A stretch of DNA of 64,000 bases. It comes from an uncultured Verrucomicrobiota bacterium (lineage in GTDB: Bacteria > Verrucomicrobiota > Verrucomicrobiia > Limisphaerales > UBA9464). The stretch spans positions 17,357-81,356 of the forward strand of contig CAIXUG010000081.1 of the NCBI GenBank assembly GCA_903922605.1, read 5' to 3'. The position numbers and the translations under genes were made by a program. Below are positions 24,419-62,931 of the stretch, in pieces. The notes beneath the pieces are model-generated. The model was not told the origin of the DNA. It was given only the letters and a program-made list of their open reading frames with translations, and did not search any database. Within the stretch, counting starts at the first letter, position 1; each line of letters begins with the position of its first letter.

Positions 24419-24440
24419 GCCGGGGCAACACACGAACGAG

Positions 24441-24467: not shown

Positions 24468-24732
24468 CTGCCCGCGCCCAGCGGGTGGGCACCGGCGGCC
24501 CGGCCGCAGCCAAAGCGCCGGATCAACGATGCCGGATCGTCTGACGATAAAGGTCGGAACAATCCCGGGAAACTTGAGCGCCAATATTTCGTGGTGGCTT
24601 CCGATGATCGCTTAATTTTATCTTGAAAACGCCGAAGAATTTTTGACGTCGCGCCCCAAGGTGCCCACATTGCCCTTGTCTGTAACGGTCGGTTAACGCA
24701 ACGGACACAGCCAGCCAAGACGGTTCATTGCT

Positions 24733-35916: not shown

Positions 35917-37167
35917 ATGTCGCTTCTGGAATTCATCCCGATTTTGGCCGCCGTGCTGATTTTAGCCCGCTGGGGGGCGGAAAGCTGGCTGGCCCTGCTC
36001 AACCGTCGCCATGTGCGCGCCCATGCAGGAGAAGTTCCGGCGACCTTTCGTGACACGGTGGATGATGCGACCTATGCAAAATCGGTCGAGTACACGCTGG
36101 CGCGCTCGCGCTTTGGCCTGGCGGAGGAGGGCTGGGGCACGCTGGTGCTGCTGGCGGTGCTGTTCAGCGGGTTGCTGCCGCTGAGCCTGGGTTGGATTCG
36201 GGGCGCGTGGGGCAATTCCGCCTGGGCGGACGCGGGCTGGCTGTTTGCGGTGGGGGTGGCGCTGTCGGTGCCGGGGTTGCCATTCGACTGGTGGGGCCAG
36301 TTCCGGCTGGAGGAGCGCTTCGGCTTTAACACCACCACGCTGGGCACCTGGCTGCTGGACCGCGTGAAGGGGCTGCTGCTGGGGGCTGTGCTCGGCTATC
36401 CGCTGCTGGTGCTAATTCTCAAGCTGGTGGGCTGGATGGGGGACCGCTGGTGGGTTTGGGCCTGGCTGGTGTTGCTGGGCTTCCAGCTGGTCATGATGGT
36501 GCTGGCGCCGGTGGTGATCCTCCCGCTGTTCAACAAGCTGACGCCGTTGCCGGACGGAACCCTGCAGGAACGTCTCCTGAAACTGGGCGAACGCACGGGT
36601 TTCTCCGCCAAAACCATCCTGGTGATGGACGGCAGCAAGCGCTCCCGCCATTCCAACGCCTTTTTCACCGGCTTCGGCCGTTTCCGGAAGATCGTGCTCT
36701 TCGACACACTGATCTCGCAGCTCAGTGAACCGGAGCTGGAGGCCGTGCTGGCCCATGAGGTCGGCCACTACAAAAAGGGCCATATTCCCAAGATGCTGGC
36801 CTGGGCCGCGTTCAGTTCATTGGTGGCCTTCGCCGTGATCGCGTGGCTGGCAAAGCAGGCGTGGTTCACCGCGGCCTTCGGCTTTCGCGCTGATCAAGGA
36901 CTCGCGCCCGCGCTGCTGCTGTTTGCCCTGCTGAGCGGCACGGTGACCTTCTGGACTTCGCCACTGATGAACTTCTCGTCCCGCAAGCACGAGTACGAGG
37001 CCGATGCCTACGCCGCCCAGGCCATGGGCGAAACGATATCGCTAAAGGGTGCCCTGCGGAAGCTGACGGAGAAAAACCTGTCAAACCTGACCCCCCATCC
37101 GTGGTTCAGCGCGTGGCATTACTCGCATCCGACTCTGTTGGAGCGAGAAACGGCGCTGGAGAAGTAA
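35917..37167 (+). CDS. M48-family zinc metalloprotease (Ste24/HtpX-like)
   Basis: HEVGHYKKGH (HExxH), multi-TM N-terminal half, C-terminal YSHPTLLER. Trimmed to MSLLEFIPIL. Confidence 0.88.
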   Translation: MSLLEFIPILAAVLILARWGAESWLALLNRRHVRAHAGEVPATFRDTVDDATYAKSVEYTLARSRFGLAEEGWGTLVLLAVLFSGLLPLSLGWIRGAWGNSAWADAGWLFAVGVALSVPGLPFDWWGQFRLEERFGFNTTTLGTWLLDRVKGLLLGAVLGYPLLVLILKLVGWMGDRWWVWAWLVLLGFQLVMMVLAPVVILPLFNKLTPLPDGTLQERLLKLGERTGFSAKTILVMDGSKRSRHSNAFFTGFGRFRKIVLFDTLISQLSEPELEAVLAHEVGHYKKGHIPKMLAWAAFSSLVAFAVIAWLAKQAWFTAAFGFRADQGLAPALLLFALLSGTVTFWTSPLMNFSSRKHEYEADAYAAQAMGETISLKGALRKLTEKNLSNLTPHPWFSAWHYSHPTLLERETALEK

Positions 37168-37335
37168 ATGGCTGACGAACGACGCAGCTTTCTGCCGTAG
37201 CAGACGAGGTGACGAAGGTGACGAGTCTCTAATTTCTTCTGACATCAGGCCAATGGGGCTGATCAAAAGGGGAAAGATAGAAACCCCTGACGTCGTTTCC
37301 TACGCAGTCTTTGGCGAATCGCCCAGCGAGCGAAT

Positions 37336-37746
37336 TTACTTGTCCGGAATCGTAATCACCCCGCCCGCCTCGATGGTCATCTTTGCCATTTTCAGGCGCG
37401 AATGGACCGTGGCGGTGGGCTGCTGACCCACCGGGTTGATGTTGTAGTCCTCGTCCACGACTTTGACGGGGAACTTCTCGCCCTGAAAATACGGTGCCAG
37501 ATCCGCCTCGGTCGGCGTGGCGTCGTCCCCCTTCTTATGATCGCCCGCCCACACCTGCTTCTGGGTGTCGATGGCGCGCAGGTTCATGACGATCGAATTG
37601 TACTTCGAGGAGGATAGCGCGTTGGTGATGTTGGGGACGGCGACCATCGCCAGCATGCCGATGATCATGATCACGATCATGATCTCGATGAGGGTGAAGG
37701 CCGAGCGACGGGCCGAACGGCGTACTGATGAAGGGCGAACTTTCAT
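37336..37746 (-). CDS. Prepilin-type N-terminal cleavage/methylation-domain protein (pilin-like), paralogue 1
   Basis: MKVRPSSVRRSARRSA/FTLIEIMIVIMIIGMLAMVAVP. It is about 60% identical to the protein at 40124-40531 and shares the C-terminus IEAGGVITIPDK. Confidence 0.85.
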   Translation of the reverse strand: MKVRPSSVRRSARRSAFTLIEIMIVIMIIGMLAMVAVPNITNALSSSKYNSIVMNLRAIDTQKQVWAGDHKKGDDATPTEADLAPYFQGEKFPVKVVDEDYNINPVGQQPTATVHSRLKMAKMTIEAGGVITIPDK

Positions 37747-37786
37747 GGCGATGTCGTTTTGCGGGTCCAACTGGGGACGACAGGAA

Positions 37787-37805
37787 TCAACACCGCCGCC
37801 GGGCA
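37787..37805 (-). promoter_or_regulatory. Conserved 19-nt motif upstream of pilin-like gene 1
   Basis: Minus-strand TGCCCGGCGGCGGTGTTGA, identical to 40571-40589. It lies at the same distance, about 40-58 nt, upstream of each ATG and ends in a TTGAYT -35-like hexamer. Confidence 0.45.
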
Positions 37806-38052
37806 AAGGTTGCATGGCGGCTTACGATTCCGGTTTCCGAGGCGCAAAATAGTGCGGATGCCGACGGTTTCAAACTGCTTTTCTGCGAAGGGCGGCGGGG
37901 CGGGAACAGAGCAGGGGAGAAAGGGGGTAGGGATGCAGGGGTGCGAGGGAGGTTACTCTTGCTCCCCCGCACCATTTCTCCCCTGCTCGTTCATTCCGGC
38001 CAAGAACGGGGTTGTTTCACCCTTCTGGAAGGGCTATTTCCTCCGGCCTTTG

Positions 38053-40014
38053 ATGCGTCCGGCACACGATCGCTTTGCGCCACGTCTGGCTCCGCTGGCT
38101 TGGCGGATCTGGCTGGCAATTGGCGTGGGAGCGACGCTGGCCGGACTCGGCCTTTCCTGGCTGGGGCAGCTGAATGCCTGGGGATATGCCCTGGCGCTTG
38201 TGCTTGGCCTCGTTGCCGGCGGACTGGTCTGGGGGCGTGAATTTCGTGGAGGCAGGGTACGGCTGAAACCGCGTTGGCGACGTTTTCGCCGGCCCGCACC
38301 GGCCGGTTTTCTGATCCTGAGCGCGGTCGCTTTTGTCGGCGGGGCGCTGTATTCGCCAATCAACTACGACACGCTCTGGTACCGGCTGCCCCGCGTGCTC
38401 CACTGGCTAGGGGAGGGGCGCTGGCACTGGATTCACACCTACGAGCTGCGGTTCAACGTCATCGCCACGGGCATGGAATGGCTCTGGGCCCCGCTCGTCG
38501 CCTGGTCGCATTCCGACCGGCTGATCTTCCTGCCCAACTTTGCCGCCTTCCTGCTGTTGCCGGGGGCCGTCTTCAGCCTTTTCACCCGGTTGGGCGTCCG
38601 CCCGCGCGTGGCGTGGTGGTGGATGTGGCTGCTGCCGGCAGGCTGGGTCTTTGCCATGCAGGCGGGCAGCGCCGCCAACGACTCCTACGCCGCCGTCTAT
38701 GCGCTCCTGATGGTGGATTTCGCGTTGCGCGCCCGTAAGAGCGGCCGGGTCACGGAATGGTGGTGGGCGTTGCTCGCCATGGCGTTGCTGACCAACACCA
38801 AGCAGAGCAACATGCCGCTCGGCCTCCTATGGCTGGTCGCCGCCTTGCCGGGCACGGGGATGGCGCTGCGCCGGCCATTTGCCACCCTGGCAGTGACCGT
38901 CATGGGGCTGATGGTATCCGTGATCCCTGTGGTGGCGCAGAATCTCTCGCATACTGGCAACTGGATGGGCTGGCCCCGGGCGGAACAGACCTGGATTCCC
39001 CAATACCCTTTGGTAGCCGTGGTGGCCAATACGGGGCTGGTGTCGCTGCACAACCTGCTGCCGCCATTTTTGCCGTTCAGCAACCGGTGGAACGCGCTGG
39101 CCACCGTGTTCGGTGACCGGTTTGACCCCTACCTGCGGGGGTTTGAGTTTTTTGGGCAGATGCCCAAAGTGTTCGATGAGGCATCGGCCGGGCTGGGGCC
39201 GTGTCTCATGGTCTTGGCGGTCGCAGCCTGGTTTTTGCGGTCGAAGGGCGAAAAGGCCGGGGGCAGGGGGGCTCCAGCCTGGCTGAAGTGGTCGATGGCG
39301 GCCCTGATGCTGCTGTTTCTGGCGAAGATGGGGTGCCGGCAGCCCGCGCGCTACCTTGCTGCATATTATCCCTTTTTGGTGGTCTTGTTCGTGGCGGGCG
39401 GTCCGCATGCCCAGATTGTTCGCCGGCGGTGGTGGCAATTCGCGGCTATGGCCTCCATCGGTTGTTCTGTTTTGTTGCTGGCGCTTTCAAAGCAGCGCCC
39501 GGTGCTGCCCACGCCCGGCATGGCGGGCTGGCTGGCCGCGCACTCACCGGTTGGCGGCAAATTCTTTGCCCGGTGGCAGACCAAACTCGAGGACAGCCTC
39601 GCCTTGGGCGATCACTTGGTGCCGTTTCAACCCTGGCTCAAGGACGCCCAAGTAGTTGGCTATGCTGCCTATACGATCGGTGAACTTAAGCTGTGGGAAC
39701 CCTACGGCAGCCGTCGGGTGGTGCACGTCCTTAATGGGGATTCGCCCGCCTTGCTTCGGGCCCAGGGAATCCGCTGGCTGGTGGTCGATGACATGGCCGC
39801 CGTCGTTGCCGGTAATCACGATGGTCTGGATTGGGCCGCCCGGCATGAAGCCACCGTGGTGACGGCCTACCCCTTGAGCCCGGCCGAGGCCGCCGACCGC
39901 CGGATTCGGGGCGAGGTGCTGGACTTGGAGGCGCTGGCCTATCAAAAGGTAAAACCCGGGCAAAAAGTGCCGCAGGACAATCTTTACCTGTTGGAGCTGA
40001 AGCCTGGCCCGTGA
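38053..40014 (+). CDS. Large polytopic membrane protein, GT-C-like putative glycosyltransferase, paralogue 1
   Basis: Trimmed to MRPAHDRFAPRLAPLAWRIW. It has about 12 TM helices with a first-loop motif YSPINYDTLWYRLPRVLHWLGEGRWHWI and a soluble C-terminal domain of about 180 aa. It is a paralogue of 41943-43844. Confidence 0.7.
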   Translation: MRPAHDRFAPRLAPLAWRIWLAIGVGATLAGLGLSWLGQLNAWGYALALVLGLVAGGLVWGREFRGGRVRLKPRWRRFRRPAPAGFLILSAVAFVGGALYSPINYDTLWYRLPRVLHWLGEGRWHWIHTYELRFNVIATGMEWLWAPLVAWSHSDRLIFLPNFAAFLLLPGAVFSLFTRLGVRPRVAWWWMWLLPAGWVFAMQAGSAANDSYAAVYALLMVDFALRARKSGRVTEWWWALLAMALLTNTKQSNMPLGLLWLVAALPGTGMALRRPFATLAVTVMGLMVSVIPVVAQNLSHTGNWMGWPRAEQTWIPQYPLVAVVANTGLVSLHNLLPPFLPFSNRWNALATVFGDRFDPYLRGFEFFGQMPKVFDEASAGLGPCLMVLAVAAWFLRSKGEKAGGRGAPAWLKWSMAALMLLFLAKMGCRQPARYLAAYYPFLVVLFVAGGPHAQIVRRRWWQFAAMASIGCSVLLLALSKQRPVLPTPGMAGWLAAHSPVGGKFFARWQTKLEDSLALGDHLVPFQPWLKDAQVVGYAAYTIGELKLWEPYGSRRVVHVLNGDSPALLRAQGIRWLVVDDMAAVVAGNHDGLDWAARHEATVVTAYPLSPAEAADRRIRGEVLDLEALAYQKVKPGQKVPQDNLYLLELKPGP

Positions 40015-40123
40015 GTGAGGAAAGGCGGGCCAGGGCCGTAGGCCTGACTTGCCGCAACGGCCAAAGATAGGGAGCGAAAGCGAGCTCACTCCCTGTCCCC
40101 CTCACTCTGGTCCTCGCCCCTAT

Positions 40124-40531
40124 TTACTTGTCCGGAATCGTGATCACGCTGCCCGCCTCGATGGTCATGGAGGACATCTTGATGCGGGTGGGGGTGGTGG
40201 CAGTGGGCGGCTGGCCGACCGGGTTGATGTGGTAGGTTTCGCCCAAGATGGCGGACAGGAACTGGCCGTTCTGAAAATAGGGGGAGAGATCGGCTTCGGT
40301 CGGCGTTGCGTGGTCGCCTTTCATGCGTTTAACCGCCCACAGATGCTTCTGGTTATCGATGACCCGGAGGTTTTGGATGATCGCATTGTACCGCGCCTCG
40401 GAGTGGGAATTGCCGAGGTTGGGGATCGCCACCATGACCAGCAGGCCGATGATCATGATCACAAGCGTTATCTCGATGCAGGTGAAGCCCAAGCGACGGG
40501 CCGGACGGCGGACGGAAGGGCGAACTTTCAT
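40124..40531 (-). CDS. Prepilin-type N-terminal cleavage/methylation-domain protein (pilin-like), paralogue 2
   Basis: MKVRPSVRRPARRLG/FTCIEITLVIMIIGLLVMVAIP, with C-terminus IEAGSVITIPDK. Confidence 0.85.
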   Translation of the reverse strand: MKVRPSVRRPARRLGFTCIEITLVIMIIGLLVMVAIPNLGNSHSEARYNAIIQNLRVIDNQKHLWAVKRMKGDHATPTEADLSPYFQNGQFLSAILGETYHINPVGQPPTATTPTRIKMSSMTIEAGSVITIPDK

Positions 40532-40570
40532 GGCGATGTCGATTTCCCGGTTCAAACGGGACTCTGCGAG

Positions 40571-40589
40571 TCAACACCGCCGCCGGGCA
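40571..40589 (-). promoter_or_regulatory. Conserved 19-nt motif upstream of pilin-like gene 2
   Basis: Identical 19-mer to 37787-37805. The flanks are also partly conserved (gcaacc upstream, gacatcgccATG downstream). Confidence 0.45.
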
Positions 40590-40678
40590 GCGGTTGCGCG
40601 ATGGGGCAAATTGAACTGCCATCAATCGGTGACACGGCTTGAAACTGGCCTCGCGGCACGATTACGTTCGCGGTCTGC

Positions 40679-41887
40679 ATGTCCGACGAGATTGAACTGA
40701 CCATAGTGATGCCCTGCCTCAACGAGGCAGAGACGCTGGCCCGCTGCATCGAGAAGGCGCACGCGGGCCTCGCCAAGGCAGGCGTCACGGGAGAGGTGCT
40801 CATCGCGGACAACGGCAGCACCGACGGGTCCATCGAGATCGCCCAGCGGCTCGGTGCCCGCGTGGAGCATGTGAAGGCCAAGGGCTATGGGAACGCCCTG
40901 CGCGGCGGCTTTGCGGCGGCCCGCGGCAAATGGCTCATGATGGGCGACTCGGACGACAGCTACGATTTCTCCAACATCAGCGGTTTTGTCGCCAAGCTCC
41001 GCGAGGGTTATGAGCTCGTGATGGGCTGCCGGCTGCCCAGCGGCGGCGGCACCATTGCGCCGGGCGCGATGCCGTGGAAGAACCGCTGGCTGGGGAATCC
41101 CACGCTGTCGTTTTTGGGACGGCTGTTCTTCAAGACGCCCATCCATGACTTTCACTGCGGCATGCGCGCCTTTTCGGCCGCGGCCTGGCGCAAGATGGAT
41201 CTGAAGACGACCGGCATGGAGTTCGCCTCCGAGATGGTCATGAAGGCGACGATCAAGGGCCTGCGGATCACCGAGGTGCCGATCACCCTGTACAAGGACG
41301 GGCGCAACCGTCCGCCCCACCTGAAGCCGTGGCGCGATGGCTGGCGGCACCTGCGGTTCATGCTGATCTACTCGCCCAAGTGGCTGTTTCTCATGCCGGG
41401 AATTGTCCTTTTCCTGCTTGGCGGGCTGGGGATGGCGCTGACCTCCTTTCACGCGTTCGGGGTGGGTTCGGTCCAGTTCGATGTCGGGACGATGCTCGGG
41501 GCCGGTCTGTGGATGGTCCTCGGCGTGCAGCTGGTATCGCTGGCGTTTTTCACCAAGGTCTTTGCGGTCGGGGAGGGGCTGCTGAATGCCGATCCGGATT
41601 TCACCAACCTGTTCCGCCGCTTCAACCTGGAGCGGGGGCTGATCGTGGGGCTGCTGACGCTGCTGACCGGTTTTGTCCTTTTCCTGCGGGCGCTCCTCGT
41701 CTGGAAGCAGGCGCACTTTGGTGTGCTGGACTACGCCGATAACCTGCGCCGGCTGATCCCGGCCACGACGCTTTGCACGATCGGCCTGCAGGTGATGTCC
41801 GCCAGCTTCTATCTGAGCGTGCTCGGGCTGAAGACGGGCACCCGTACTCCGCCGGGAAGCGAAGGCTCTGGTCCGGCCCGGACCTGA
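40679..41887 (+). CDS. Family-2 glycosyltransferase with C-terminal TM helices (GtrB/ArnC-like polyprenyl-phosphate glycosyltransferase architecture)
   Basis: LTIVMPCLNE, LIADNGSTDGS, MMGDSDDSYD (DxD), then 4 predicted TM helices (WLFLMPGIVLFLLGGLGMAL and others). Confidence 0.85.
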   Translation: MSDEIELTIVMPCLNEAETLARCIEKAHAGLAKAGVTGEVLIADNGSTDGSIEIAQRLGARVEHVKAKGYGNALRGGFAAARGKWLMMGDSDDSYDFSNISGFVAKLREGYELVMGCRLPSGGGTIAPGAMPWKNRWLGNPTLSFLGRLFFKTPIHDFHCGMRAFSAAAWRKMDLKTTGMEFASEMVMKATIKGLRITEVPITLYKDGRNRPPHLKPWRDGWRHLRFMLIYSPKWLFLMPGIVLFLLGGLGMALTSFHAFGVGSVQFDVGTMLGAGLWMVLGVQLVSLAFFTKVFAVGEGLLNADPDFTNLFRRFNLERGLIVGLLTLLTGFVLFLRALLVWKQAHFGVLDYADNLRRLIPATTLCTIGLQVMSASFYLSVLGLKTGTRTPPGSEGSGPART

Positions 41888-41942
41888 GACGGACCAAAGT
41901 CCGCCGCGCCTCGTGCACACGGAATCCTCAGGTATTTCCAGC

Positions 41943-43844
41943 ATGTGCTCCGAAACCAACGCGCCGCGTCCGGCCCTGATGTGGGTCTGGCTGCTGGCTT
42001 GGCTGCCTGCGCTGGGTTGGATGCTTTCCGCCGTTGGGCAGCTTAACCGGGTCGGCTATGCCGTCGGCCTCGTGGTCGCCGTGATCATCACCGGGCTCCT
42101 GTGGCGGCCGGGTTTTGCGGCAACGGGCTGGGGCTGCTGGTCTTTCAAACGCCTGCGACGGCGGTTTGGTCGGCCTTTGCCCTTTTGCTTTCTGGTCACG
42201 GTCGCTCTGGGGCTGGTCGGAGGGCTGCTTTACGCGCCCAACAACTATGACGCGCTTTCCTACCGGACACCGCGCTCCCTGCACTGGTTGGCGGCAGGGC
42301 GCTGGCACTGGATCGAGACGGTTCATGAGCGTCTCAACACCCGGGCGAGCGGGTTCGAGTGGGCGACGACGCCGTTGCTGGCGTTCACCCATTCGGACCG
42401 GTTGTTTTTCCTGCTGAGCTTCGGCTCCTTTTTGCTGCTGCCCGGGCTGACCTTTGCCTGGCTGCGTCGCATGGGCGTGGGCGGACGGGCGGCGTGGAAC
42501 TGGATGTGGGTCTTCGCCGGCGGCTACTGCTTCGCGTTGCAGGCTGGCGGAATCCAGAACGATCTTTATGGCGTGACGCTGGTTCTCGCCGCGATGGTCT
42601 TTGCCAGGCGTGCCAGCGACGGCGGGAAGTGGCTCGACCTTGCCACCTCGGTGCTGGCGGCCGCCCTTTCCACCAACGCCAAGTCCAGCAACCTGCCGCT
42701 GCTGCTTCCCTGGGCCATTGCCATCTGGCCCGCCAGTCGCGCCTGCCTGCGGCGGCCTCTGGCCACGGCGCTGGTCCTGGTGGTGGCGGCGCTCGGTTCG
42801 CTGCTGCCCGTGGCAGTGCTCAATCAGCGGCATTGCGGCGACTGGTCCGGGGCGAGCATTGAACCACTGGCCAAACAGATTTCGCAGCGGGCCTATGCCC
42901 CGGCCTACGTCGTTCACAACGCCGCGTTGCTGGTGATCCAGAACCTCGCGCCGCCGGTGTTCCCCTTTGCAGGCCCTTGGAACGCGGCGGTACAGCATGC
43001 CCTGCCCGAACGCTGGCTTGCCCTGCTGGATGTCGCGGCGGAGGAAGGGCGCAATTCTTACCGGCTGCGTGAGTTGCCCGGTGACGAACACACCGGGCTC
43101 GGGCTGGGGGTCACCGCGCTGCTGCTGGTGCAACTGGCGCTTCGCCGACGGCAGGACGCCGCCGCCGGGCCTCAACCGTGGTCCATGCGGCTGCTGCGCT
43201 GGTCACCCTGGCTCAGTCTGCTGGTCTATTCGGCCATAGCGGCCATTCAGACCACCTCCCGGATTGCCGCCCCGTATTACGCCCTGCTGCTGCCCACGCT
43301 GTTGCCGCGTGGTTCGCGTGGTGACATAAGCCGCCGGGCGTGGTGGCCCCGCCTCGCGCTGCTGGCCTACGGGTCCACCTTTTTGCTCATGGTGCTGTCA
43401 CCCTCACGCCCCCTCTGGCCGGCGGTGCGGGTGCTGGGCACGTTGCAGGAGCGTTTTCATCACCCGCTCATTGCCCGGGCGCTCACCGTCTATCAGGTGT
43501 ACGGCGACCGCGCCGAGCTGCTGTCGGGGCTGGTCAAACACCTCGACCATCCGGACGACACGATCGGTTTCATCGCCCAAAACGCTCTCGAAACCTCGCT
43601 TTGGAAACCGTTCGGCACACGACGGGTGGTCCACCTGCTGCCCCAGGATGACGCGGCGGCCGTGCGTGCCCGGGGAGCCCAGGCCATCGTGGTGCCGGTG
43701 GTGGAAATGGAGGGTATGACGGGCCTGTCCATCACGGAATGGAGCCGGCGAATCGGGGCTGAGCTGGTCGTCGAAGAGGAATTGCGCACCACGGCCAGCC
43801 ACGAACCCGCCCGATGGGCATTGTTTCGGTTGAAGCCGCTCTGA
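41943..43844 (+). CDS. Large polytopic membrane protein, GT-C-like putative glycosyltransferase, paralogue 2
   Basis: MCSETNAPRPALMWVWLLAWLPALGW..., with first-loop motif YAPNNYDALSYRTPRSLHWLAAGRWHWI. It is collinear with the paralogue at 38053-40014. An alternative GTG start lies at 41913. Confidence 0.7.
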   Translation: MCSETNAPRPALMWVWLLAWLPALGWMLSAVGQLNRVGYAVGLVVAVIITGLLWRPGFAATGWGCWSFKRLRRRFGRPLPFCFLVTVALGLVGGLLYAPNNYDALSYRTPRSLHWLAAGRWHWIETVHERLNTRASGFEWATTPLLAFTHSDRLFFLLSFGSFLLLPGLTFAWLRRMGVGGRAAWNWMWVFAGGYCFALQAGGIQNDLYGVTLVLAAMVFARRASDGGKWLDLATSVLAAALSTNAKSSNLPLLLPWAIAIWPASRACLRRPLATALVLVVAALGSLLPVAVLNQRHCGDWSGASIEPLAKQISQRAYAPAYVVHNAALLVIQNLAPPVFPFAGPWNAAVQHALPERWLALLDVAAEEGRNSYRLRELPGDEHTGLGLGVTALLLVQLALRRRQDAAAGPQPWSMRLLRWSPWLSLLVYSAIAAIQTTSRIAAPYYALLLPTLLPRGSRGDISRRAWWPRLALLAYGSTFLLMVLSPSRPLWPAVRVLGTLQERFHHPLIARALTVYQVYGDRAELLSGLVKHLDHPDDTIGFIAQNALETSLWKPFGTRRVVHLLPQDDAAAVRARGAQAIVVPVVEMEGMTGLSITEWSRRIGAELVVEEELRTTASHEPARWALFRLKPL

Positions 43845-43875
43845 CATTCCGCCGACCCTGTGCTCGCTTTCGCTT

Positions 43876-44439
43876 ATGACGTTACTGGACCGAATCCTGC
43901 AAAACTGGCGCGTGGACAAGGCGAGCCGCTTCCTCATTCCCGGCATGAAGGTACTCGACCTGGGCAGCGCCGACGGGGTGCTGTTTTCGCGCCACGGCGG
44001 TTGCGGTCCCGGCAGCATGGGCATTGATCCGGCACTGGCGGCGGATAGCCGTTCGGCCAATGGTTTTCGGCAGACGCGGGGTTTTTTCCCGCAGGACATG
44101 CCGAAGGACGCGGGAGTGTTTGACGCCGTCGTCATGCTGGCGGTGCTGGAGCATTTTCCCAACGACCAGCACGGCGTGCTGGCGAGCGGCATCGCGAACT
44201 GCCTGCGACCGGGCGGCCTGCTGATCATCACGGTGCCGTCGGCCATCGTGGATCACATCCTGAACGTGCTCACGACGCTGCGCCTGGTTCATGGCATGGC
44301 CCTGGAAGAGCACCACGGCTACGAGGTGTGCCACACGCCGATGATCTTCAGCCCGCCCCGGTTCCGGTTGCTGAAGCGCCAGAAGTTCCAGCTGGGAGTG
44401 AACAACCTCTTTGTTTTCGAGCGGACGGCCAAAAACTGA
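43876..44439 (+). CDS. Class I SAM-dependent methyltransferase
   Basis: Motif I VLDLGSADG, plus VVMLAVLEHF and LRPGGLLIITVP. Confidence 0.8.
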   Translation: MTLLDRILQNWRVDKASRFLIPGMKVLDLGSADGVLFSRHGGCGPGSMGIDPALAADSRSANGFRQTRGFFPQDMPKDAGVFDAVVMLAVLEHFPNDQHGVLASGIANCLRPGGLLIITVPSAIVDHILNVLTTLRLVHGMALEEHHGYEVCHTPMIFSPPRFRLLKRQKFQLGVNNLFVFERTAKN

Positions 44440-44448
44440 GACCGCTGT

Positions 44449-45174
44449 TCAGCGGAGAGTGCGGGAATCGTCCACCGGCACCGGATTCAGCCGGCGTCGT
44501 TGGTACCAGGCGACCCCGACGAGGTCGAAGAGGCCCCGACCCAGCCGGTTCCAGACTCCGTATTTGCTCACGCCGGCGACGCGGGGACGGTGGTTCACGG
44601 GTACTTCCCGGCATTGGCTGCCGTTGCCCGCGACGAGGATCGGCAGGAATCGGTGCAGCCCGTTAAAGGGAAACACGCCGGTGAGCGAAGAGCGCTTGAA
44701 GGCACGCAGGGCGCAGCCGGTATCGGCGAAGTCGTAGCGCAGCACGAGCTTGCGCGCGGCCCGGGCCACCCGGGAGGAAACCTTGCGGACAAAGGAGTCC
44801 TGCCGGTTCACGCGATGGCCACAGACGAAATCCACCTCGCCAAGCAGGGCCAGCATCCGGGGCAGCTCGGCGGGATCGTTCTGAAGATCGCCATCGAGTG
44901 TGCAGAGCAGGGGAGCGGTCGAGCCGGTCAGGCCGGTCCAGACGGCGGCACTCTGGCCCCGGTTCTTCGTGTGGCGCAGGCCGCGCACATGCGGATCGCG
45001 GGTCTGGGCGGCCAGGATTTCCGCCCAGGTGCCGTCGTTGCTGCAATCGTCCACGAGCACGAGTTCCCACGGGCGTGGTTCGGCGCCAAACAGGCGGGCG
45101 ATCTCGTCCACGAGCGGGGCGACATTGGCCGACTCGTTAAACATCGGCACGACAATGGCGATTTCAGCAGACAC
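44449..45174 (-). CDS. Family-2 glycosyltransferase (soluble, dolichyl/polyprenyl-phosphate sugar synthase-like)
   Basis: IAIVVPMFNE, LVLVDDCSNDGT, LDGDLQNDP, and NRGQSAA. Confidence 0.85.
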   Translation of the reverse strand: MSAEIAIVVPMFNESANVAPLVDEIARLFGAEPRPWELVLVDDCSNDGTWAEILAAQTRDPHVRGLRHTKNRGQSAAVWTGLTGSTAPLLCTLDGDLQNDPAELPRMLALLGEVDFVCGHRVNRQDSFVRKVSSRVARAARKLVLRYDFADTGCALRAFKRSSLTGVFPFNGLHRFLPILVAGNGSQCREVPVNHRPRVAGVSKYGVWNRLGRGLFDLVGVAWYQRRRLNPVPVDDSRTLR

Positions 45175-45249
45175 GGTGCCCAGAGGGTAAAACGCAGCGC
45201 CGATGGGCGTCGAGCCCGCGCCGTTTCCGGAAAGCGCTGAAAATGCCGG

Positions 45250-45558
45250 TTACCGGCGCTCGGGGGGAATGGTTTTCAGCTGCGAAGCGAACCGCGCGTG
45301 GGCTGCGAGGTCCACCGGGCGGTGCTTGACCCGGCTGCTGGCCGGGTCGTGGTCGAGGAAGTTGTCGCCCTTCCAATTGTTCGCCGGGCGGACCGGGCGG
45401 GGAGTGAAGCCGCCGCCGCAGTTCGGGCAGACATCGTGCAGAATGCTGTCCACACACGTCGCGCAGAACGTGCATTCGTAAGAGCAGATGCGCGCCTCGG
45501 TGGATTCGGGCGGCAGCGGCTGGTTGCAGTGCTCGCAGGTGGGGCGGAGTTCCAGCAT
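45250..45558 (-). CDS. DUF1272 zinc-ribbon protein
   Basis: MLELRPTCEHCNQPLPP...ICSYECTFCATCV...CPNCGGGF, a pattern of four Cys pairs. Confidence 0.75.
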   Translation of the reverse strand: MLELRPTCEHCNQPLPPESTEARICSYECTFCATCVDSILHDVCPNCGGGFTPRPVRPANNWKGDNFLDHDPASSRVKHRPVDLAAHARFASQLKTIPPERR

Positions 45559-45580
45559 GTCGAAACAGGGGAATGCCCAA

Positions 45581-46336
45581 TTACGTCTTCTGCCGCAATC
45601 CTACGACCGTACCATGAAGCTCCTGGGCGAGGATTTTCCGGTCGGCCCCGGGCGGGCGGGCGGTGCCAAAGGCGACGCGTCCGCCGATCCAGGCCTTGCC
45701 GAGCAGGTTCAAAAAGTGCGGGAAGAAAGTCATGTCGCGCCAGTAGGCCACATCGTCCGCCACCGTGCCCTCGCTGACGGAGTAATCGAGCGCCACCGGG
45801 GCCACCACCCAGCCGTTGCCCACGGCGGGTGCCAGCAGCGATGGACGGAAAGGCAGCACCGTGTCACCGCCGGAACTGGTGCCTTCGAGAAACATCACCA
45901 CCGGAACGTTGTCCTCAAGGATGGGCGCGAACTGACGGGCGACCTCAACCAGGTCACCCTTGCGCTCGCGTTGGAGATAGAGGGTGCCGGCACACTGCGT
46001 CAGCCAGCCGATGATGGGCCAGCCGCGCACCTCGGCCTTGGAGACGAAGACCATGGGCGTGACGGCAACGAGGGTGACGATGTCGAGATAGCCAAGATGG
46101 TTGGAGCAGAAGAACTGGGCGGCGGGTACCGGTCCCACCGATTCGACTCGCAGGTCGAGTACCCGGCATAGGCCTTTGGCATGGCGGTGAGACCATTCCG
46201 CCCGCAGACGGTAATTGCGCCGTCCGAGCCTCCTCTCCGCCGGACGCACGGTCCGGCCGAAGTCAATGAGCGCGAGCGCGCTAAACCAGAGGAAATTAAG
46301 GAATCGTCCCGCCGCGCGGAACGGGTGTCGCGGCAT
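45581..46336 (-). CDS. olsA: Lysolipid acyltransferase (PlsC family), probable lyso-ornithine-lipid O-acyltransferase
   Basis: HX4D motif (SNHLGYLDI) and FLEGTSSGG. Trimmed to MPRHPFRAAGRF. It starts 4 nt after the stop of the olsB-like gene. Confidence 0.65.
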   Translation of the reverse strand: MPRHPFRAAGRFLNFLWFSALALIDFGRTVRPAERRLGRRNYRLRAEWSHRHAKGLCRVLDLRVESVGPVPAAQFFCSNHLGYLDIVTLVAVTPMVFVSKAEVRGWPIIGWLTQCAGTLYLQRERKGDLVEVARQFAPILEDNVPVVMFLEGTSSGGDTVLPFRPSLLAPAVGNGWVVAPVALDYSVSEGTVADDVAYWRDMTFFPHFLNLLGKAWIGGRVAFGTARPPGADRKILAQELHGTVVGLRQKT

Positions 46337-46340
46337 GGAC

Positions 46341-47150
46341 CTAGGCTCCCAACAGGCGCCGGGCACCCGGGGTGAGCACATCGAGATCCTGCCAGGTGAG
46401 GAAGTCGATGGTCTTGAACTCCCGGTCAATCGCAGGCGGGCCGCAGATCTTGGAGCCGAACGAAAGGTAGGCGCGGAGGAGTTTCGGGATTTTGGGAGCT
46501 TCCTCGGCCAGGGTCTGCATGTCGCAGTAGAAGGCCGGCCGGGGAAAGGTGCGCAGGGCCGGCTCCACGAGATGCGCGTCACTCAGTTCGAAGAAGGCCG
46601 CCGCCCCCACCTGGGGATCCTGCGAGGTCAGCGAACTGCACCCCACGAGGTAGCGGCTGCCGTGTTCGCGCGCGTAGGAAATGATGCCCTTCCAGAGCAG
46701 GCCGAGCACGAGCAGGTTGCGGTGGTCGATGTGAACACAGGCGCGGCCCAGCTCCACGATCTGTTCCCGGAGCGGTTCGTAAGGTGAAAAATCGAACTCC
46801 TGCTCGGAGTAGTAGCCGAAATGACGGGCGGCGGAGAGGCCGGTCTGCAACCGGTAGGTGCCCACGACGTCGCCGGTACGGCGGTCCTCGACCAGCAGAT
46901 GGTCGCAGACCGGATCAAAATGGTCCTCATCCCGCAACGTGGCGAAGGAGCTTTCCAGCCCCTCGTTCAGCTCGAGGTTGAAAACCAAAAACCGAAGTGC
47001 CTGGGCGGCATGGATATCCTCCGCCGAGGTGGCCCGACGCAGCACGTACGGCGATTCCGTAACGGTGCGATTGAGCACGCGCGCACCCATGATGGCGGCG
47101 CTGCCCGGCAGATTGGCGGTGAGGCTCCCAGCTAGCATGGCGGATGTCAT
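46341..47150 (-). CDS. olsB: GNAT-fold N-acyltransferase, ornithine-acyl-ACP N-acyltransferase-like
   Basis: The pattern RFLVFNLELNEGL...DEDHFDPVCDHLLVEDRRTGDVVGTYRLQ...YSEQEFDF...IVELGRACVHIDHRN matches the OlsB / hemolysin-like Acetyltransf_5 family as I remember it. Trimmed to MTSAMLAG. Confidence 0.7.
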   Translation of the reverse strand: MTSAMLAGSLTANLPGSAAIMGARVLNRTVTESPYVLRRATSAEDIHAAQALRFLVFNLELNEGLESSFATLRDEDHFDPVCDHLLVEDRRTGDVVGTYRLQTGLSAARHFGYYSEQEFDFSPYEPLREQIVELGRACVHIDHRNLLVLGLLWKGIISYAREHGSRYLVGCSSLTSQDPQVGAAAFFELSDAHLVEPALRTFPRPAFYCDMQTLAEEAPKIPKLLRAYLSFGSKICGPPAIDREFKTIDFLTWQDLDVLTPGARRLLGA

Positions 47151-47365
47151 AGCGGGAGAAGTCTGTCTCGGCAAGTCCCCGCCCGGCACGTCACCTTGCG
47201 GTGAAACATGCAACATTGGGGTGACGAGCGGGAATTGGTGGCAGTCCATCCAGGATGAGTCGCGTGACGGCGGGATTCCTTGCAAAATCAACCGGCCTCG
47301 AAAGGGTTGGAAAATGTCGCGGTCGAGTCTGACGCAACAAATTCAGAGCCAGCATGATGCGAAGC

Positions 47366-48025
47366 TCAATGTTCGCCACCGCCCAAATGGCGGATGTCCC
47401 GGGCCTCGTACAGGAAGACCGCATCCTCGGCGACGTTCTTGGCGTGGTCGGCGATGCGTTCCAACGCCTTGCTGATGGCCATCAGGTTCAGGCAGCGGGT
47501 GATCGTGGTGGGTTTCTCGATCATGTAGCTCGCCAGTTCCCGGTGAAGCTGCTTGTTGAGCTGGTCCACGTCCTTGTCGCGGGGGATGACGCTGCGGGCC
47601 CGGGCGGTGTCACCGGTGACGAAGGCACCGAGCGCATCGTTCAGCATGGCCATCGCCATCGTGGCCATGCGGGGAATGTCCACGTAGGGCTTGAGCTGGG
47701 GTTCCTGCGACAGTTCCAGCGAACGGCGGGCGATGGTGGTGGCCTCGTCCCCGACGCGTTCGAGGTCGCGGGAAATCTTCATCGCGCTGGTGATGAGACG
47801 GAGCTGGGTGGCCAGGGGAGCCTTGGCCAGCAGGGCGATGCAGGCGGCATCCACCTGCTGCTCGAGCTGGTCAATGGCGTCGTCCTCCTCCTTCACGCGG
47901 CGGGCGAGGTCATCATCGCGTTCGACGAGCGCCTTGATGGCGTTGTTGACGGCGGCCTCGGCACGGCTGGCCATGAGCAGCAGACGCTCCTTCAGGGCGG
48001 CGAGTTCGATTTCAAAGTGGGACAT
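47366..48025 (-). CDS. phoU: Phosphate signalling complex protein PhoU
   Basis: Duplicated PhoU repeats (DDLARRVKEEDDAIDQLE and ...ERIADHAKNVAEDAVFL). It lies directly downstream of pstB. Confidence 0.93.
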   Translation of the reverse strand: MSHFEIELAALKERLLLMASRAEAAVNNAIKALVERDDDLARRVKEEDDAIDQLEQQVDAACIALLAKAPLATQLRLITSAMKISRDLERVGDEATTIARRSLELSQEPQLKPYVDIPRMATMAMAMLNDALGAFVTGDTARARSVIPRDKDVDQLNKQLHRELASYMIEKPTTITRCLNLMAISKALERIADHAKNVAEDAVFLYEARDIRHLGGGEH

Positions 48026-48068
48026 GGAAATGGCGAATGACGAGTTGCGAGTGACGAATTGAAGCGGC

Positions 48069-48887
48069 TCAGCCGAAGCGGCCGGTGACGTAGTCCTCGG
48101 TCTGCTTTTTGGCGGGGTTCGTGAAGATCTTGGAGGTGAGATCGTACTCGATCAGCTCACCGATGTAGAAGAACGCCGTGTAATCGGAAATGCGCGTGGC
48201 CTGCTGCATGTTGTGCGTGACGATCACGATGGTGAACTCCTTTTTCAACTCGATGATCAGTTCCTCGACCTTGGCGGTGGCGATGGGGTCCAGGGCGCTG
48301 GCCGGCTCGTCCATCAGTATGATCTCGGGCCGGATCGCGATGGCGCGGGCGATGCACAGGCGCTGCTGCTGGCCGCCGGAGAGGCCGAGCGCACTGGAAT
48401 TCAGGCGGTCCTTCACCTCGTCCCAGAGCGCCGCGCCGCGCAGCGACTTCTCGACCACGGCATCCACTTCGGATTTGGCCCGCCTGCCCTGGAGGTTCAG
48501 GCCGTAGGCGATGTTGTCGTAAATGGACTTCGGGAACGGGTTGCTCCGCTGGAACACCATGCCGACCCGCTTGCGCAACTCGATTACGTCCACATCCTTG
48601 GCATAGATGTCCTCCCCCCCGATCCGACATTCGCCGGTGATGCGCACGCCGTCGATCAGGTCGTTCATCCGGTTGAAGCAGCGCAGATAGGTGGACTTGC
48701 CGCAGCCCGACGGCCCGATGAACGCGGTGACGAGCTTCTCGCGGATGGACAGGTTGATGCTCTTGAGCGCCCGGGAGGTGCCGTAGAAAAGCTCCAGGTC
48801 CTTCGTCTCGATGAGCGCCGGCGCGTTCAGGATTTCGGCGGGCGTGACGAGATCGACCGGGTTGGTGGAGAGGGTGATGGCGGCCAT
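48069..48887 (-). CDS. pstB: Phosphate ABC transporter ATP-binding protein
   Basis: [37 protein letters not shown], and the C-terminus DYVTGRFG typical of PstB. Confidence 0.96.
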
Positions 48888-48902
48888 GGGAAAGAAAGCG
48901 GT

Positions 48903-49871
48903 TCAGTGTCCGGCCCGCATCGCCTTGCGCATCCGGGCGCGCGCGATGATGCCGACGGCGTTGAGGGAAAAGGTGAGGGCCAGCAGCACCAGCACGGTGG
49001 CGTAGAGGATCGGCCGGGTCTTCTCGATGTTGTCGGACTGCGTGCTCAGCACGAAGGCGTGATAGCCGAGGTCCATGAACTGGTCGGTGAGCCGCGTCGG
49101 CAGGTCGGCCATGTAGTAGGCCACCCCGGTGAAGAGGATCGGCGCGACCTCGCCGGCGGCGCGGCTCACGGCGAGGATGCCGCCGGTCAGGATGCCGGGG
49201 AGCGCGTTGGGCAGCACGATCTTGATGATCGTCTCCAGCTTGGTCGCGCCCAATGCGAGGCTGGCTTCTCGCAGCCCGGGCGTGATGGCCTTCAGCGACT
49301 CCTCGGTCGCCACAATGACGACCGGCATGGTCATGACCGCGAGCGTGAGCGAAGCCCATAGCACCGATTCATGGCCCCAAACCGGCGTGGGGGAGTGCAG
49401 GAGCGCATCCATGTTCTTCCCGACGAAGTTGATGAAGAAGCCGAGACCGAACAGGCCGAAGACGATGGAGGGCACGCCGGCCAGGTTGGCGATGGCCACC
49501 CGGATGATCCGGGTGTAAGGCGAACTGGACGCGGCATATTCCGTGAGATAGACGGCGGTGATCACCCCGATGGGGATCACAAACACCGTCATCACCAGCA
49601 CCCGGATCGTGGTCCCGATGATCATCGACAGCACGGCGGCGGACTCCGGCTCGAAGAAGTCCTTGCGGGGGATCGTGGAGACGAAGCGCCAGGACAGCCC
49701 CGGGAGGCCGTTGATGAGGATGTTCGAGAGGATGGCCGCGAGAAACAGCAGGATGGCAAGCGTCGCCAAACCGGTCAGGCTCGTGAAAAAGCCCGAGGCC
49801 AGGTCGAACTTCTGGCGGGTGAAACGCCGCTTCACCGGACTGGCGGGAGCAGGGGTGGCAGCGGAGTTCAT
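48903..49871 (-). CDS. pstA: Phosphate ABC transporter permease PstA
   Basis: Six-TM BPD-transporter permease with an EAA-like loop (LREASLALGATKLETI). Its position lies between pstC and pstB. Confidence 0.9.
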   Translation of the reverse strand: MNSAATPAPASPVKRRFTRQKFDLASGFFTSLTGLATLAILLFLAAILSNILINGLPGLSWRFVSTIPRKDFFEPESAAVLSMIIGTTIRVLVMTVFVIPIGVITAVYLTEYAASSSPYTRIIRVAIANLAGVPSIVFGLFGLGFFINFVGKNMDALLHSPTPVWGHESVLWASLTLAVMTMPVVIVATEESLKAITPGLREASLALGATKLETIIKIVLPNALPGILTGGILAVSRAAGEVAPILFTGVAYYMADLPTRLTDQFMDLGYHAFVLSTQSDNIEKTRPILYATVLVLLALTFSLNAVGIIARARMRKAMRAGH

Positions 49872-49899
49872 GGCGCAACAGGAGAGGGAAGAGGGTGGC

Positions 49900-51132
49900 T
49901 CATTTGCCGGAGCGGCGCTGTTTCAACCGCTGCATGACGATGTCACCCAGCAGGTTGGTCGTGAAGGTCACGGCAAACAGGAGCGTGCCGAGCATGAACA
50001 GCACCCGGTAGTGGTGGCCGCCCTTGACCGCCTCGGCCATCTCCGCTGCGATGGTGGCGGTGAGGCTGCGCGTGGAGTCGAAGATGTTCCAGGAAACGAC
50101 GCTCGCGTTGCCGCTGGCGATCAGCACCACCATCGTCTCACCGATGCAGCGGCCGAAGCCGAGCACCAGGGCGGCAAACACGCCAGGTGCGGCGGCGGGC
50201 AGCACGATCTGCCACGCGGTCTGCCAGCGCGACGCCCCGAGGGCGAGCGCGGCCTGCACGTAGCTGCGGGGCACGCTGGTGAGCGCGTCCTCGGCGATGG
50301 AGAAGATGAGCGGCACGGCGGTGAGGCCAAGCGCGATACCCGCCACGAAGGCATTGAGCCGGTAGCGGTAGCCGAAGAGGTTCTGCAGGAACCCCGCGAG
50401 CACGATGAAGGCAAAGGCGCCCATCACGACCGAAGGGATGCCCGACAGAAACTCGATGCCGGGCTTGATCCATTCCTTCCAGCGTGGTGAGGCCAATTGC
50501 GAGACGTAGATGGCGGCGGCCAGGGAGAGGGGCACGGCGAAGGCCAGGCCGACCATCGTGGTCTTGAGGGTGCCGATCAGCAGGGGGATCAGGTTGTACT
50601 TGGGAATTGTCCCGACCGGCTGCCAGATGTATTCGGGCTTGCTGTAACCGGTCCACTGGAAGGGATGGAGCATGTAGGCCCATTCGGTCGTGTTGACCTT
50701 GGCATCCTTGTCATCCCGGAAGCTGGCCGGCACCTCCTTGGCGGCCTCCTCACGGATTTCCATCATCGTCTGCAGGGTCTCGTGATCCTTGGATTTCAGC
50801 TCCGAAGGGGTCATGCCCAGATACTTGGCCAGCTTGGCCGGCGGCACCTTGTCGAGGTCGGTGGACGGGATGACATCCTGAACCAGGGCGCTGTCGGTCT
50901 CGCCGAGAAACACCGGCAACGCCTCACGACCCACGAACAGGAAGATGAGGAAAACCATCGCGATGGCCGAGAAGCTGACCCCGAAGATGAACTTCTCGGC
51001 GAGCCATTCGAGCGGGCGCGCCTTGTGGCCGCGATGGATGCCCATCCAGCCGATGGGCCGGCGGGCGGGTGGGTTGGCGTGAGGATCGGGCACGACGGGG
51101 ATTCGGGTTAGGCGGGCACCGGAAAGGCGCAC
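49900..51132 (-). CDS. pstC: Phosphate ABC transporter permease PstC (start uncertain)
   Basis: BPD-transporter permease with the loop VQAALALGASRWQTAWQIVLP. It has a long N-terminal periplasmic insertion. Possible internal start at MGIHRGHK. Confidence 0.88.
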   Translation of the reverse strand: MRLSGARLTRIPVVPDPHANPPARRPIGWMGIHRGHKARPLEWLAEKFIFGVSFSAIAMVFLIFLFVGREALPVFLGETDSALVQDVIPSTDLDKVPPAKLAKYLGMTPSELKSKDHETLQTMMEIREEAAKEVPASFRDDKDAKVNTTEWAYMLHPFQWTGYSKPEYIWQPVGTIPKYNLIPLLIGTLKTTMVGLAFAVPLSLAAAIYVSQLASPRWKEWIKPGIEFLSGIPSVVMGAFAFIVLAGFLQNLFGYRYRLNAFVAGIALGLTAVPLIFSIAEDALTSVPRSYVQAALALGASRWQTAWQIVLPAAAPGVFAALVLGFGRCIGETMVVLIASGNASVVSWNIFDSTRSLTATIAAEMAEAVKGGHHYRVLFMLGTLLFAVTFTTNLLGDIVMQRLKQRRSGK

Positions 51133-51160
51133 GGAATCGGCATGGGCGGAGACTAAACGG

Positions 51161-51208
51161 GGTGGAGGCGTTGAACCTACTTACGTTTGGGTTACAACGG
51201 CCTCCACC
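51161..51208 (-). other. Intercistronic stem-loop between pstS and pstC
   Basis: ggtggaggcgttg (51161-51173) pairs with caacggcctccacc (51195-51208), with one bulge and a 21-nt loop. Confidence 0.55.
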
Positions 51209-51294
51209 CCTTGGGTGATCGCGGAGGAACTGCGATCAAATTCTGCCGAACGGAGGGAGGGCATCGGCTGCCCGCCCCGCCATTGCGATGGCGC

Positions 51295-52152: not shown

Positions 52153-52207
52153 GCTAGTGGGTTGAGAAATTCGCCGCGTGACGAGGGGGTTACGCGGCGG
52201 TGACGAT

Positions 52208-62888: not shown

Positions 62889-62931
62889 ATCAGTAAGCGA
62901 TTTAAGAAATGTCGTGGCCGAGCCCCTAGCC

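Follow-up and report, generated by a model that had tools for sequence, protein, structure and literature searches.

A probable lipid-carrier-dependent periplasmic glycosylation locus, with two GT-C-fold paralogues and later-duplicated pilin-like neighbours, in a Verrucomicrobiota bacterium

What do two large polytopic membrane proteins do beside a pair of pilin-like genes, and does each of them act upon a pilin of its own? The question arises from a 64-kb stretch of DNA from an uncultured Verrucomicrobiota bacterium (contig CAIXUG010000081.1, positions 17,357 to 81,356; hereafter the window, in whose coordinates all open reading frame (ORF) positions are given). Within it, positions 37336-45174 hold the two membrane proteins, two pilin-like genes, two glycosyltransferases of family 2 (GT2) and a methyltransferase. 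A first-pass annotation had read this cluster as a tandemly duplicated module, in which each large protein, possibly a glycosyltransferase of the GT-C fold, modifies a divergently encoded pilin-like protein. We favor a different account, to which we give a probability of about 0.6: the core of the cluster is a lipid-carrier-dependent periplasmic glycosylation locus, and the pilin-like genes are neighbors that were duplicated later. Gene functions were inferred from sequence and from comparisons with Pfam, NCBIfam and the PDB. All seven ORFs of the cluster were found where they had first been placed, and together with an adjoining peptidase gene they are arranged as follows:

35917-37167, plus strand: M48 (Ste24/HtpX-like) membrane peptidase (Pfam Peptidase_M48_N 3.6e-55, Peptidase_M48 8.7e-36)
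37336-37746, minus strand: pilin-like gene A, 136 aa; class III signal RRSA/FTLIEIMIV, with Ala at -1 and Glu at +5
37747-37813, minus strand: 5' region of pilin-like gene A, copied along with the coding sequence (repeat families D5 and D7, and pairwise DNA alignment)
38053-40014, plus strand: predicted GT-C-fold membrane protein, A-type paralogue, 653 aa (AlphaFold2 (AF2) model and Foldseek)
40124-40531, minus strand: pilin-like gene B, 135 aa; RRLG/FTCIEITLV, with Gly at -1 and Glu at +5; copy of gene A
40679-41887, plus strand: GT2 with about 4 C-terminal transmembrane helices, 402 aa, DPMS/AglJ-like candidate polyprenyl-phosphate hexose synthase (Pfam Glycos_transf_2 5.9e-22)
41943-43844, plus strand: predicted GT-C-fold membrane protein, B-type paralogue, 633 aa (37% identity to the A-type)
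43876-44439, plus strand: S-adenosylmethionine-dependent methyltransferase, 187 aa, in the same orientation as the GT-C and GT2 genes (Pfam Methyltransf_23 1.1e-14)
44449-45174, minus strand: ArnC-like GT2 without transmembrane helices, 241 aa (Pfam GT2 1.4e-27; no hydrophobic segment)

The two large membrane proteins are clearly related to one another (37% identity over 590 aa, E 5e-95), and the loop motif NYD(T/A)L(W/S)YR.PR.LHWL..GRWHWI, reported at first inspection, is present in both. An AF2 model of the 653-aa protein (pLDDT 89.7, pTM 0.91) was compared with the PDB using Foldseek, and the top 30 matches were all GT-C enzymes, with E values of 3e-5 to 2e-2 and probabilities of 0.94-1.00 (1.00 save two). 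The structures matched include ALG9, STT3/AglB/PglB, EmbA/B/C, ArnT, PimE, DPY19, ALG3 and AftD, with the best TM-score obtained for ArnT (5ezm; TMq 0.46, TMt 0.54). The model thus supports a GT-C fold for the large proteins, in agreement with the initial proposal. A transporter role was also considered and set aside, as MFS, CLC and SLC structures appeared only at Foldseek probabilities of 0.15 or below. Sequence and profile searches of the PDB with the large protein were empty, and the fold comparison alone was informative. DUF2142 is the single Pfam family with any signal, in all cases below its gathering threshold of 30.1 bits: the A-type protein scores at E 0.029, and its homologues P0006 and P0019 at 6e-7 and 0.0022, while the B-type protein gives no DUF2142 signal.

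Where might the active site of such a protein lie? Transmembrane segments were assigned by hydropathy and the sidedness of loops by the positive-inside rule. The A-type protein is predicted to consist of an N-terminal transmembrane hairpin, about 13 further transmembrane helices, and a C-terminal alpha/beta domain of about 120 residues (approximately 530-650) that, from helix and positive-loop counting, is probably periplasmic. Because the loop at 56-84 contains 10 Lys/Arg residues, it is predicted to be cytoplasmic; helix 81-99 would therefore lead into a periplasmic loop, 104-156, that starts with N104-Y-D106. In an alignment of 36 homologues, numbered according to the 653-aa protein, Y110, R111, R114, W118, E142, N209, D210 and K250 are invariant. 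All of these occupy predicted periplasmic positions, with Y110, R111, R114, W118 and E142 in the first long loop, and N209-D210 and K250 at helix ends. This predicted layout of charged residues is that expected of a GT-C active site, and we infer that these are candidate functional residues.

Both GT2 enzymes resemble synthases of lipid-linked sugar donors. The GT2 encoded between the two paralogues (40679-41887) has, as first described, a GT2 domain followed by about 4 C-terminal hydrophobic helices, and its orthologues carry PF26629 (GT2_TM_C). Its best PDB relative is the P. furiosus DPMS (5mlz; 3.7e-8 over residues 5-252), and its NCBIfam matches are AglJ (1.9e-33), dolichyl-P hexose transferase (1.7e-22) and PpgS (5.8e-16), all below their cutoffs. 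The other GT2 (44449-45174) matches ArnC structures (2.9e-32, residues 4-220), DPMS (1.1e-14) and the GtrB-like sll0501 (3e-9), as well as NCBIfam PpgS (7.5e-11), again below cutoff. Since the NCBIfam equivalog scores are all below cutoff, no specific sugar can be assigned to either enzyme. The comparisons support a placement of both GT2s closest to the polyprenyl-phosphate sugar synthases of the DPMS/GtrB/ArnC group. The second GT2 had been described as a soluble enzyme that follows, with the methyltransferase, after the second unit. The absence of a predicted transmembrane helix bears out the first part, but the gene does not simply continue that unit: it lies on the minus strand, and it and the methyltransferase gene are transcribed toward each other. 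Scans for promoters and terminators gave counts no higher than in shuffled sequence, so transcription units are read here from strand and spacing alone.

Is the association between a GT2 and a large membrane protein of this kind particular to this genome? The GT-C family is large, comprising at least 720 clusters at 90% identity (2,863 at 50% identity; E <= 1e-3), and the 150 best matches of an exhaustive profile search were all close members of it. Its neighborhoods were studied in 79 loci, kept from 356 stretches in GTDB species representatives and referred to here by L numbers. The family records in these loci are nearly all titled Verrucomicrobiota, and a single genome often has several copies; 18 of the 79 loci contain a second family gene, and some contain tandem arrays of paralogues (for example, L038 and L076). 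The commonest conserved neighbor is an orthologue of the DPMS-like, transmembrane-bearing GT2, which lies within 500 bp of the family GT-C gene in 32 of the 79 loci. The general logic of a GT2 paired with a GT-C enzyme for periplasmic glycosylation, to which the first-pass annotation had appealed, is therefore well supported by the predicted fold, the DPMS/ArnC-like GT2s and this conserved pairing.

The A- and B-type proteins appear in different company elsewhere. Outside the close clade, 21 of 50 B-type genes adjoin a DPMS-like GT2 and one of the 50 is near lipopolysaccharide (LPS)-type genes, defined as Wzy_C (O-antigen ligase-like) or GT9 (heptosyltransferase) genes within 3 kb. For the A-type the corresponding counts are 5 of 33 adjoining a GT2 and 10 of 33 near LPS-type genes by that definition. 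Thus, the B-type partners DPMS-like GT2s, and the A-type often sits in clusters of the LPS-core/O-antigen type. Because A-type genes outside the close clade are so often near LPS-type genes, envelope glycans are suggested as the usual acceptors, and the probable acceptors at the locus studied here are envelope glycans too, whether LPS-related or of another kind. The GT-C pair itself is an ancient one: its two members have diverged in function, and they belong to a large family that lacks annotation and is known almost entirely from Verrucomicrobiota. As a separate observation, L081, L082 and 15 other genome loci hold a B-type GT-C/DPMS-like GT2 pair with a 290-aa NAD-dependent epimerase/reductase and a 530-aa Rossmann-type FAD/NAD oxidoreductase within 8 kb. 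We speculate that these two enzymes might epimerize the lipid-linked sugar, following a DprE1/DprE2-like logic; the pair is absent from the 64-kb window.

If the core of the locus is a glycosylation system, how do the pilin-like genes relate to it? The two encoded proteins had been estimated to be about 60% identical, close to the 64% that we obtained (E 1e-64), and they have the described common C-terminus, IEAG(G/S)VITIPDK, and the described junctions, RRSA/FTLIE in one and LG/FTCIE in the other. Protein A passes both Pfam N_methyl (26.8 bits, cutoff 21.2) and TIGR02532 (26.3, cutoff 16.3). Protein B has no Pfam hit and reaches 13.7 for TIGR02532 against the cutoff of 16.3; its prepilin motif keeps Gly at -1 and Glu at +5. 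The Ala at -1 of protein A is shared by about half of the pilin-like family. In an AF2 model of protein A (pLDDT 80.4), a 51-residue N-terminal helix (residues 19-69) is followed by short strands. Foldseek against the PDB found no significant match for this model, the best relevant one being C. difficile PilA1 (E 4.2, TM 0.41), with the long helix dominating the comparison. Many solved pilin structures lack the N-terminal helix.

The proposed duplication of a whole head-to-tail module was not borne out at the DNA level. The repeat is limited to 37334-37813 versus 40122-40597, about 480 bp at 75-90% identity, and comprises the pilin coding sequence and about 85 bp upstream, ending at the stop codon; the repeat search found no repeat that links the two GT-C genes. 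Moreover, A-type and B-type orthologues are 43-57% identical across genomes, versus 35-41% between A and B within a genome, and several relatives (L004/L009, L006, L007, L008 and L034) have both GT-C paralogues together with a single pilin-like gene. As orthologue identities exceed those between A and B, and as relatives with both paralogues have one pilin, the GT-C duplication long predates the second pilin gene. At the position of pilin B, no gene is present in L001, L004 or L006-L008.

The second pilin copy is unstable in the clade. In L001, an 85% relative, a second copy lies beside the first (9016-9396), and its N-terminus has been replaced by one without a prepilin motif. In L005, a 91% relative, an orthologue of pilin B occupies the same position as in the window (10060-10520), and a 1-nt deletion produces a frameshift, which could be an assembly error. 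A neighbor-joining tree and identity matrix place proteins A and B at 72% and 75% identity to the single pilin of L006, versus 64% to each other. These distances do not show whether the pilin gene was duplicated before or after the L006 lineage split off, and the dating therefore rests on gene content and on the extent of the DNA repeat. By these measures the pilin duplication is later than, and separate from, that of the GT-C genes. The repeat also contains a 30-nt element 5' of both pilin-like genes (37784-37813 and 40568-40597), which reads GA(A/G)TCAACACCGCCGCCGGGCA..GGTTGC on the plus strand. It is 90% identical between the copies, above the 75-78% of the coding sequence, and L001 and L005 have a comparable stretch ahead of their pilin genes; the element may be common regulatory sequence or part of a shared 5' untranslated region.

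Pilin/GT-C adjacency in other genomes is a further means of asking whether the two belong together. Only 6 of the 79 loci have a member of the pilin family no more than 3 kb from a family GT-C gene, and all 6 are in the closest clade, across which the identity of bigA is 45-91%. Conversely, the GT-C family is encoded in none of the 84 loci of a pilin-centered metagenome set (L084-L167, 530 kb), and the pilin homologues P0144, P0161 and P0170 lie in unrelated neighborhoods; the homologues so placed have identities of 61%, 53% and 44%. The adjacency, whose complete absence from other genomes would have told against the first-pass reading, is thus kept within one clade and does not extend beyond it in either set. 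The clade that keeps it also keeps the flanking M48 peptidase gene, which adjoins the pilin-like gene in L001, L004, L005, L006, L008, L009 and L034 and is its steadiest neighbor among related genomes; closer members (L001, L004/L009, L005 and L006) retain MacB/ABC genes as well. Because these flanking genes are kept too, shared synteny explains the adjacency equally well. Given this weak linkage, the repeat that covers the pilin alone, and the relatives in which a single pilin accompanies both GT-C paralogues, the idea of a dedicated, duplicated substrate/enzyme pair is not supported.

Pilin-like genes also lie about 50-400 bp from GT-C-type polytopic proteins of other kinds in seven metagenome loci. 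Pfam identifies PMT_2 in L086, PMT_2 with TPR in L100 and L148, and YfhO in L096; L116 has TPR only, and L097 and L119 were recognized by phmmer similarity. Among immediate neighbors of the pilin-like genes, PMT_2 occurs in 4 of 84 loci, YfhO in one, and there are some TPR-polytopic proteins. A general enrichment of GT-C genes beside pilin-like genes is suggestive, with any GT-C found in 7 of 84 cases versus about 4 of 128 control genes from the same loci (Fisher p = 0.12, not significant). In the metagenome loci, the immediate neighbors of the pilin-like family are most often ABC-transporter ATPases (8 of 84), then sigma-54-dependent response regulators (5 of 84), with type II secretion system E and F genes in only 2 of 84; a sigma-54 activator is encoded in the window at 1928-3403.

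Could the pilin-like proteins be the acceptors after all? One or both GT-C proteins might add sugar to their divergently encoded pilin-like neighbors by O-glycosylation in the periplasm, with the GT2 supplying the polyprenyl-phosphate donor, much as TfpW of P. aeruginosa, a GT-C enzyme, arabinosylates group IV pilin (PilA) from polyprenyl-P-D-Araf (bioRxiv 10.1101/2020.04.19.049825). The resemblance to TfpW/PilA drawn here is one of fold and placement: in the window, too, a GT-C-fold enzyme gene lies directly beside a type IV pilin-like gene, and the donor would be lipid-linked. In P. aeruginosa, tfpW presumably adjoins pilA. A pilin-like gene is found next to the cluster in all sampled clade members (L001, L004-L009 and L034) despite their differing gene orders, small pilin-like genes occur near distant B-type loci (about 1.2 kb away in L027 and about 4.5-5 kb in L063), metagenome relatives sit beside the PMT_2-TPR and YfhO types of GT-C, and the pilins contain conserved TPTE and PTAT segments. 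These segments, however, are equally conserved in pilins without a GT-C neighbor, and homologues as similar as A is to B sit in unrelated contexts. The adjacency at the window locus, unlike that of TfpW, is confined to one clade and not reciprocal, the pilin-like genes are divergently transcribed and not co-transcribed, and the locus has no pilus assembly genes, TfpX or DprE1/E2. With synteny sufficient to account for the adjacency, the second copy degenerate or frameshifted in both sister genomes that have one, and both GT-C paralogues older than the second pilin gene, we regard modification of the pilins as unlikely, though worth keeping in mind; the version with one GT-C per pilin is less likely still. 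A bolder form, in which the pilins are the true acceptors, the new family O-glycosylates them as part of a phylum-wide habit of pilin/GT-C pairing (PMT_2-TPR, YfhO and this family), and each old GT-C paralogue gained its own pilin, strikes us as a long shot.

The GT-C proteins might alternatively act upon many secreted or envelope proteins, in the manner of PMT, with the pilin-like proteins at most two of their substrates. The several GT-C paralogues per genome and their tandem arrays would suit such a role, as would a soluble domain at the C-terminus with the potential to bind peptide acceptors, and protein-modifying GT-Cs (STT3/AglB/PglB, PMT and DPY19) are among the structural matches. Yet enzymes that modify glycans or lipids (ArnT, Emb, PimE, AftD and ALG9) match as well or better, with ArnT giving the top TM-score, A-type genes associate with Wzy_C and GT9 genes, and no evidence indicates a protein acceptor; broad protein O-glycosylation is improbable, marginally more so than the bold pilin model. 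Least probable, in our estimate, is that the large proteins are not active glycosyltransferases at all, but rather proteins of GT-C shape with another function, for example as scaffold, as transporter, or as a polymerase or ligase-like enzyme. Such a role would fit the variation of the candidate catalytic Asp106 in 6 of 36 sequences, the TM-scores to solved GT-C structures of only 0.3-0.46 and the absence of a matching curated family model, but it sits poorly with 30 best structural matches that are all GT-C, with transporters at Foldseek probabilities of at most 0.15, with invariant acidic and basic residues in predicted periplasmic loops, and with a DPMS-like lipid-sugar synthase as the conserved partner.

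Several observations weigh against the glycosylation locus that we prefer. Solved GT-C structures match the model with only modest global TM-scores (0.3-0.46), neither large protein reaches the threshold of a Pfam or NCBIfam model, so that no curated GT-C sequence model is matched, and D106, which follows transmembrane helix 81-99, is kept in 30 of 36 sequences and is not invariant. The case for envelope glycans comes from the neighborhoods of distant paralogues (35-44% identity), and the window locus has no LPS genes beside it. A crude hydropathy screen of the 64-kb window found no ORF of 80-220 aa with at least 3 hydrophobic segments, as would be sought for a GtrA-type flippase candidate, and the cluster itself has no spare coding space. 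Finally, a motif scan found two prepilin-type ORFs in the whole window and both fall in this cluster, and the pilin adjacency outlasts internal rearrangement, since the gene orders of L034, L004 and L006 all differ. No Pfam domains for prepilin peptidase or pilus assembly were found among the larger window ORFs scanned, a set that leaves out, among others, 1-487, 59500-60021 and 62268-63311. Within the reach of the hydropathy screen and of Pfam on the larger ORFs, then, the first-pass statement that the window holds no flippase, prepilin peptidase or pilus assembly genes agrees with what we found.

How would a lipid-carrier-dependent glycosylation locus of this composition work? Judging from its homologues, the DPMS-like GT2 would move a sugar from a nucleotide sugar onto polyprenyl phosphate at the cytoplasmic face of the membrane, and the lipid-linked sugar would then be flipped to the periplasmic face by a component that was not found in the window. 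There, both GT-C proteins would pass the sugar to periplasmic acceptors, as their predicted fold, conservation and positive-inside topology suggest. Catalysis may involve the first periplasmic loop, N104-x-D106...Y110-R111-x-P-R114, together with E142, N209-D210 and K250, and the C-terminal alpha/beta domain may bind the acceptor. The methyltransferase, at a guess, acts on the sugar or on the product; its gene stays within the cluster in L001, L004-L009, L012 and L034, and was counted in 8 of the 79 genome loci. The ArnC-like GT2, whose link to the cluster is positional only, may supply a second lipid-linked sugar. As to history, a single pilin-like gene would have been the syntenic neighbor of the cluster in this clade, and a segment of about 480 bp containing it would have been copied between the A-type GT-C and the GT2 genes.

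This scheme resembles known pathways. Three-component extracytoplasmic glycosylation combines a polyprenyl-P sugar synthase, a flippase and a GT-C enzyme, as in the GT136 systems (Kelly et al. 2024, PMC11127046). Like GtrB/GtrC, ArnC/ArnT and the three-component systems, the window locus encodes a GT2 of the DPMS/ArnC/GtrB group beside a GT-C protein, a pairing conserved across the family, and A-type relatives are found in O-antigen/LPS-type clusters; the C-terminal soluble domain recalls the acceptor-binding carbohydrate-binding module of the GT136 enzyme. Unlike these systems, the window has no GtrA-, MATE- or ArnE/F-type flippase by the crude hydropathy screen, the locus has two GT-C paralogues, two GT2s and a methyltransferase inside the cluster, and its GT-C family has an extra N-terminal transmembrane hairpin and no Pfam or NCBIfam model. 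In mycobacteria, PpgS (Rv3631) or Ppm1 works with the GT-C transferases Rv3779, PimE and Mpt/Emb/Aft. There too a GT2 provides the polyprenyl-phosphate sugar for several GT-C paralogues; the 241-aa GT2 without transmembrane helices resembles the catalytic domains of PpgS and ArnC, and Emb, AftD and PimE are among our structural matches. The working logic of these mycobacterial polyprenyl-P-sugar/GT-C pathways is alike (PMC3485146), but the envelope of Verrucomicrobiota is Gram-negative and there is no family membership at the sequence level. Another parallel is offered by DUF2142 (PF09913), a family of uncharacterized polytopic proteins from the cell-wall polysaccharide loci of streptococci and lactococci, where GT2 genes accompany them (PMC9746298). 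These are likewise polytopic proteins next to GT2 genes and have weak, sub-threshold similarity to the A-type; all scores are below the gathering threshold and the B-type has no signal, and DUF2142 is itself without a demonstrated function.

The surroundings of the locus include further genes of interest. The ArnC-like GT2 is the final gene of a string on the opposite strand, and it keeps its position and strand in L001, L005, L006 and L008. This minus-strand string (44449-53632) consists of a Porin_5 porin, PstS, PstC, PstA, PstB, PhoU, an Acetyltransf_5 protein, a PlsC-type acyltransferase, DUF1272 and the ArnC-like GT2. We read the Acetyltransf_5 protein as OlsB-like and the PlsC-type acyltransferase as OlsA-like; by this reading, phosphate-transport and putative ornithine-lipid genes appear to have a lipid-linked-sugar or glycolipid step in their company, and a role of the string in membrane remodeling under phosphate limitation is possible. 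Elsewhere in the window, proteins of 889 and 1103 aa (7304-9973, plus strand, and 18662-21973, minus strand) both open with sigma-70 regions 2 and 4 of the extracytoplasmic function type, one running on into a redoxin/AhpC-TSA domain and the other into CarboxypepD_reg and Ig-like domains. At 22711-27267 (plus strand), a UVR-motif protein, an ATP:guanido phosphotransferase and a Clp ATPase, the last inferred through an 844-aa orthologue at the start of L001, stand in a row that we read as a McsA/McsB/ClpC-like protein arginine kinase module.

Taken as a glycosylation locus, the cluster is not a new kind of system: its logic is known from Gtr, Arn and three-component systems, and a GT-C gene beside a pilin gene has a precedent in TfpW. 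What is unannotated is the GT-C family itself, for which D106, E142, D210, R111, R114 and K250 are candidate catalytic residues for mutagenesis. The locus gives a predicted GT-C fold and a likely donor pathway to a large family that is labeled "hypothetical" everywhere. This suggests that, among Verrucomicrobiota of soil and fresh water, periplasmic glycosylation that depends on a lipid carrier is a widespread part of how the envelope is built.

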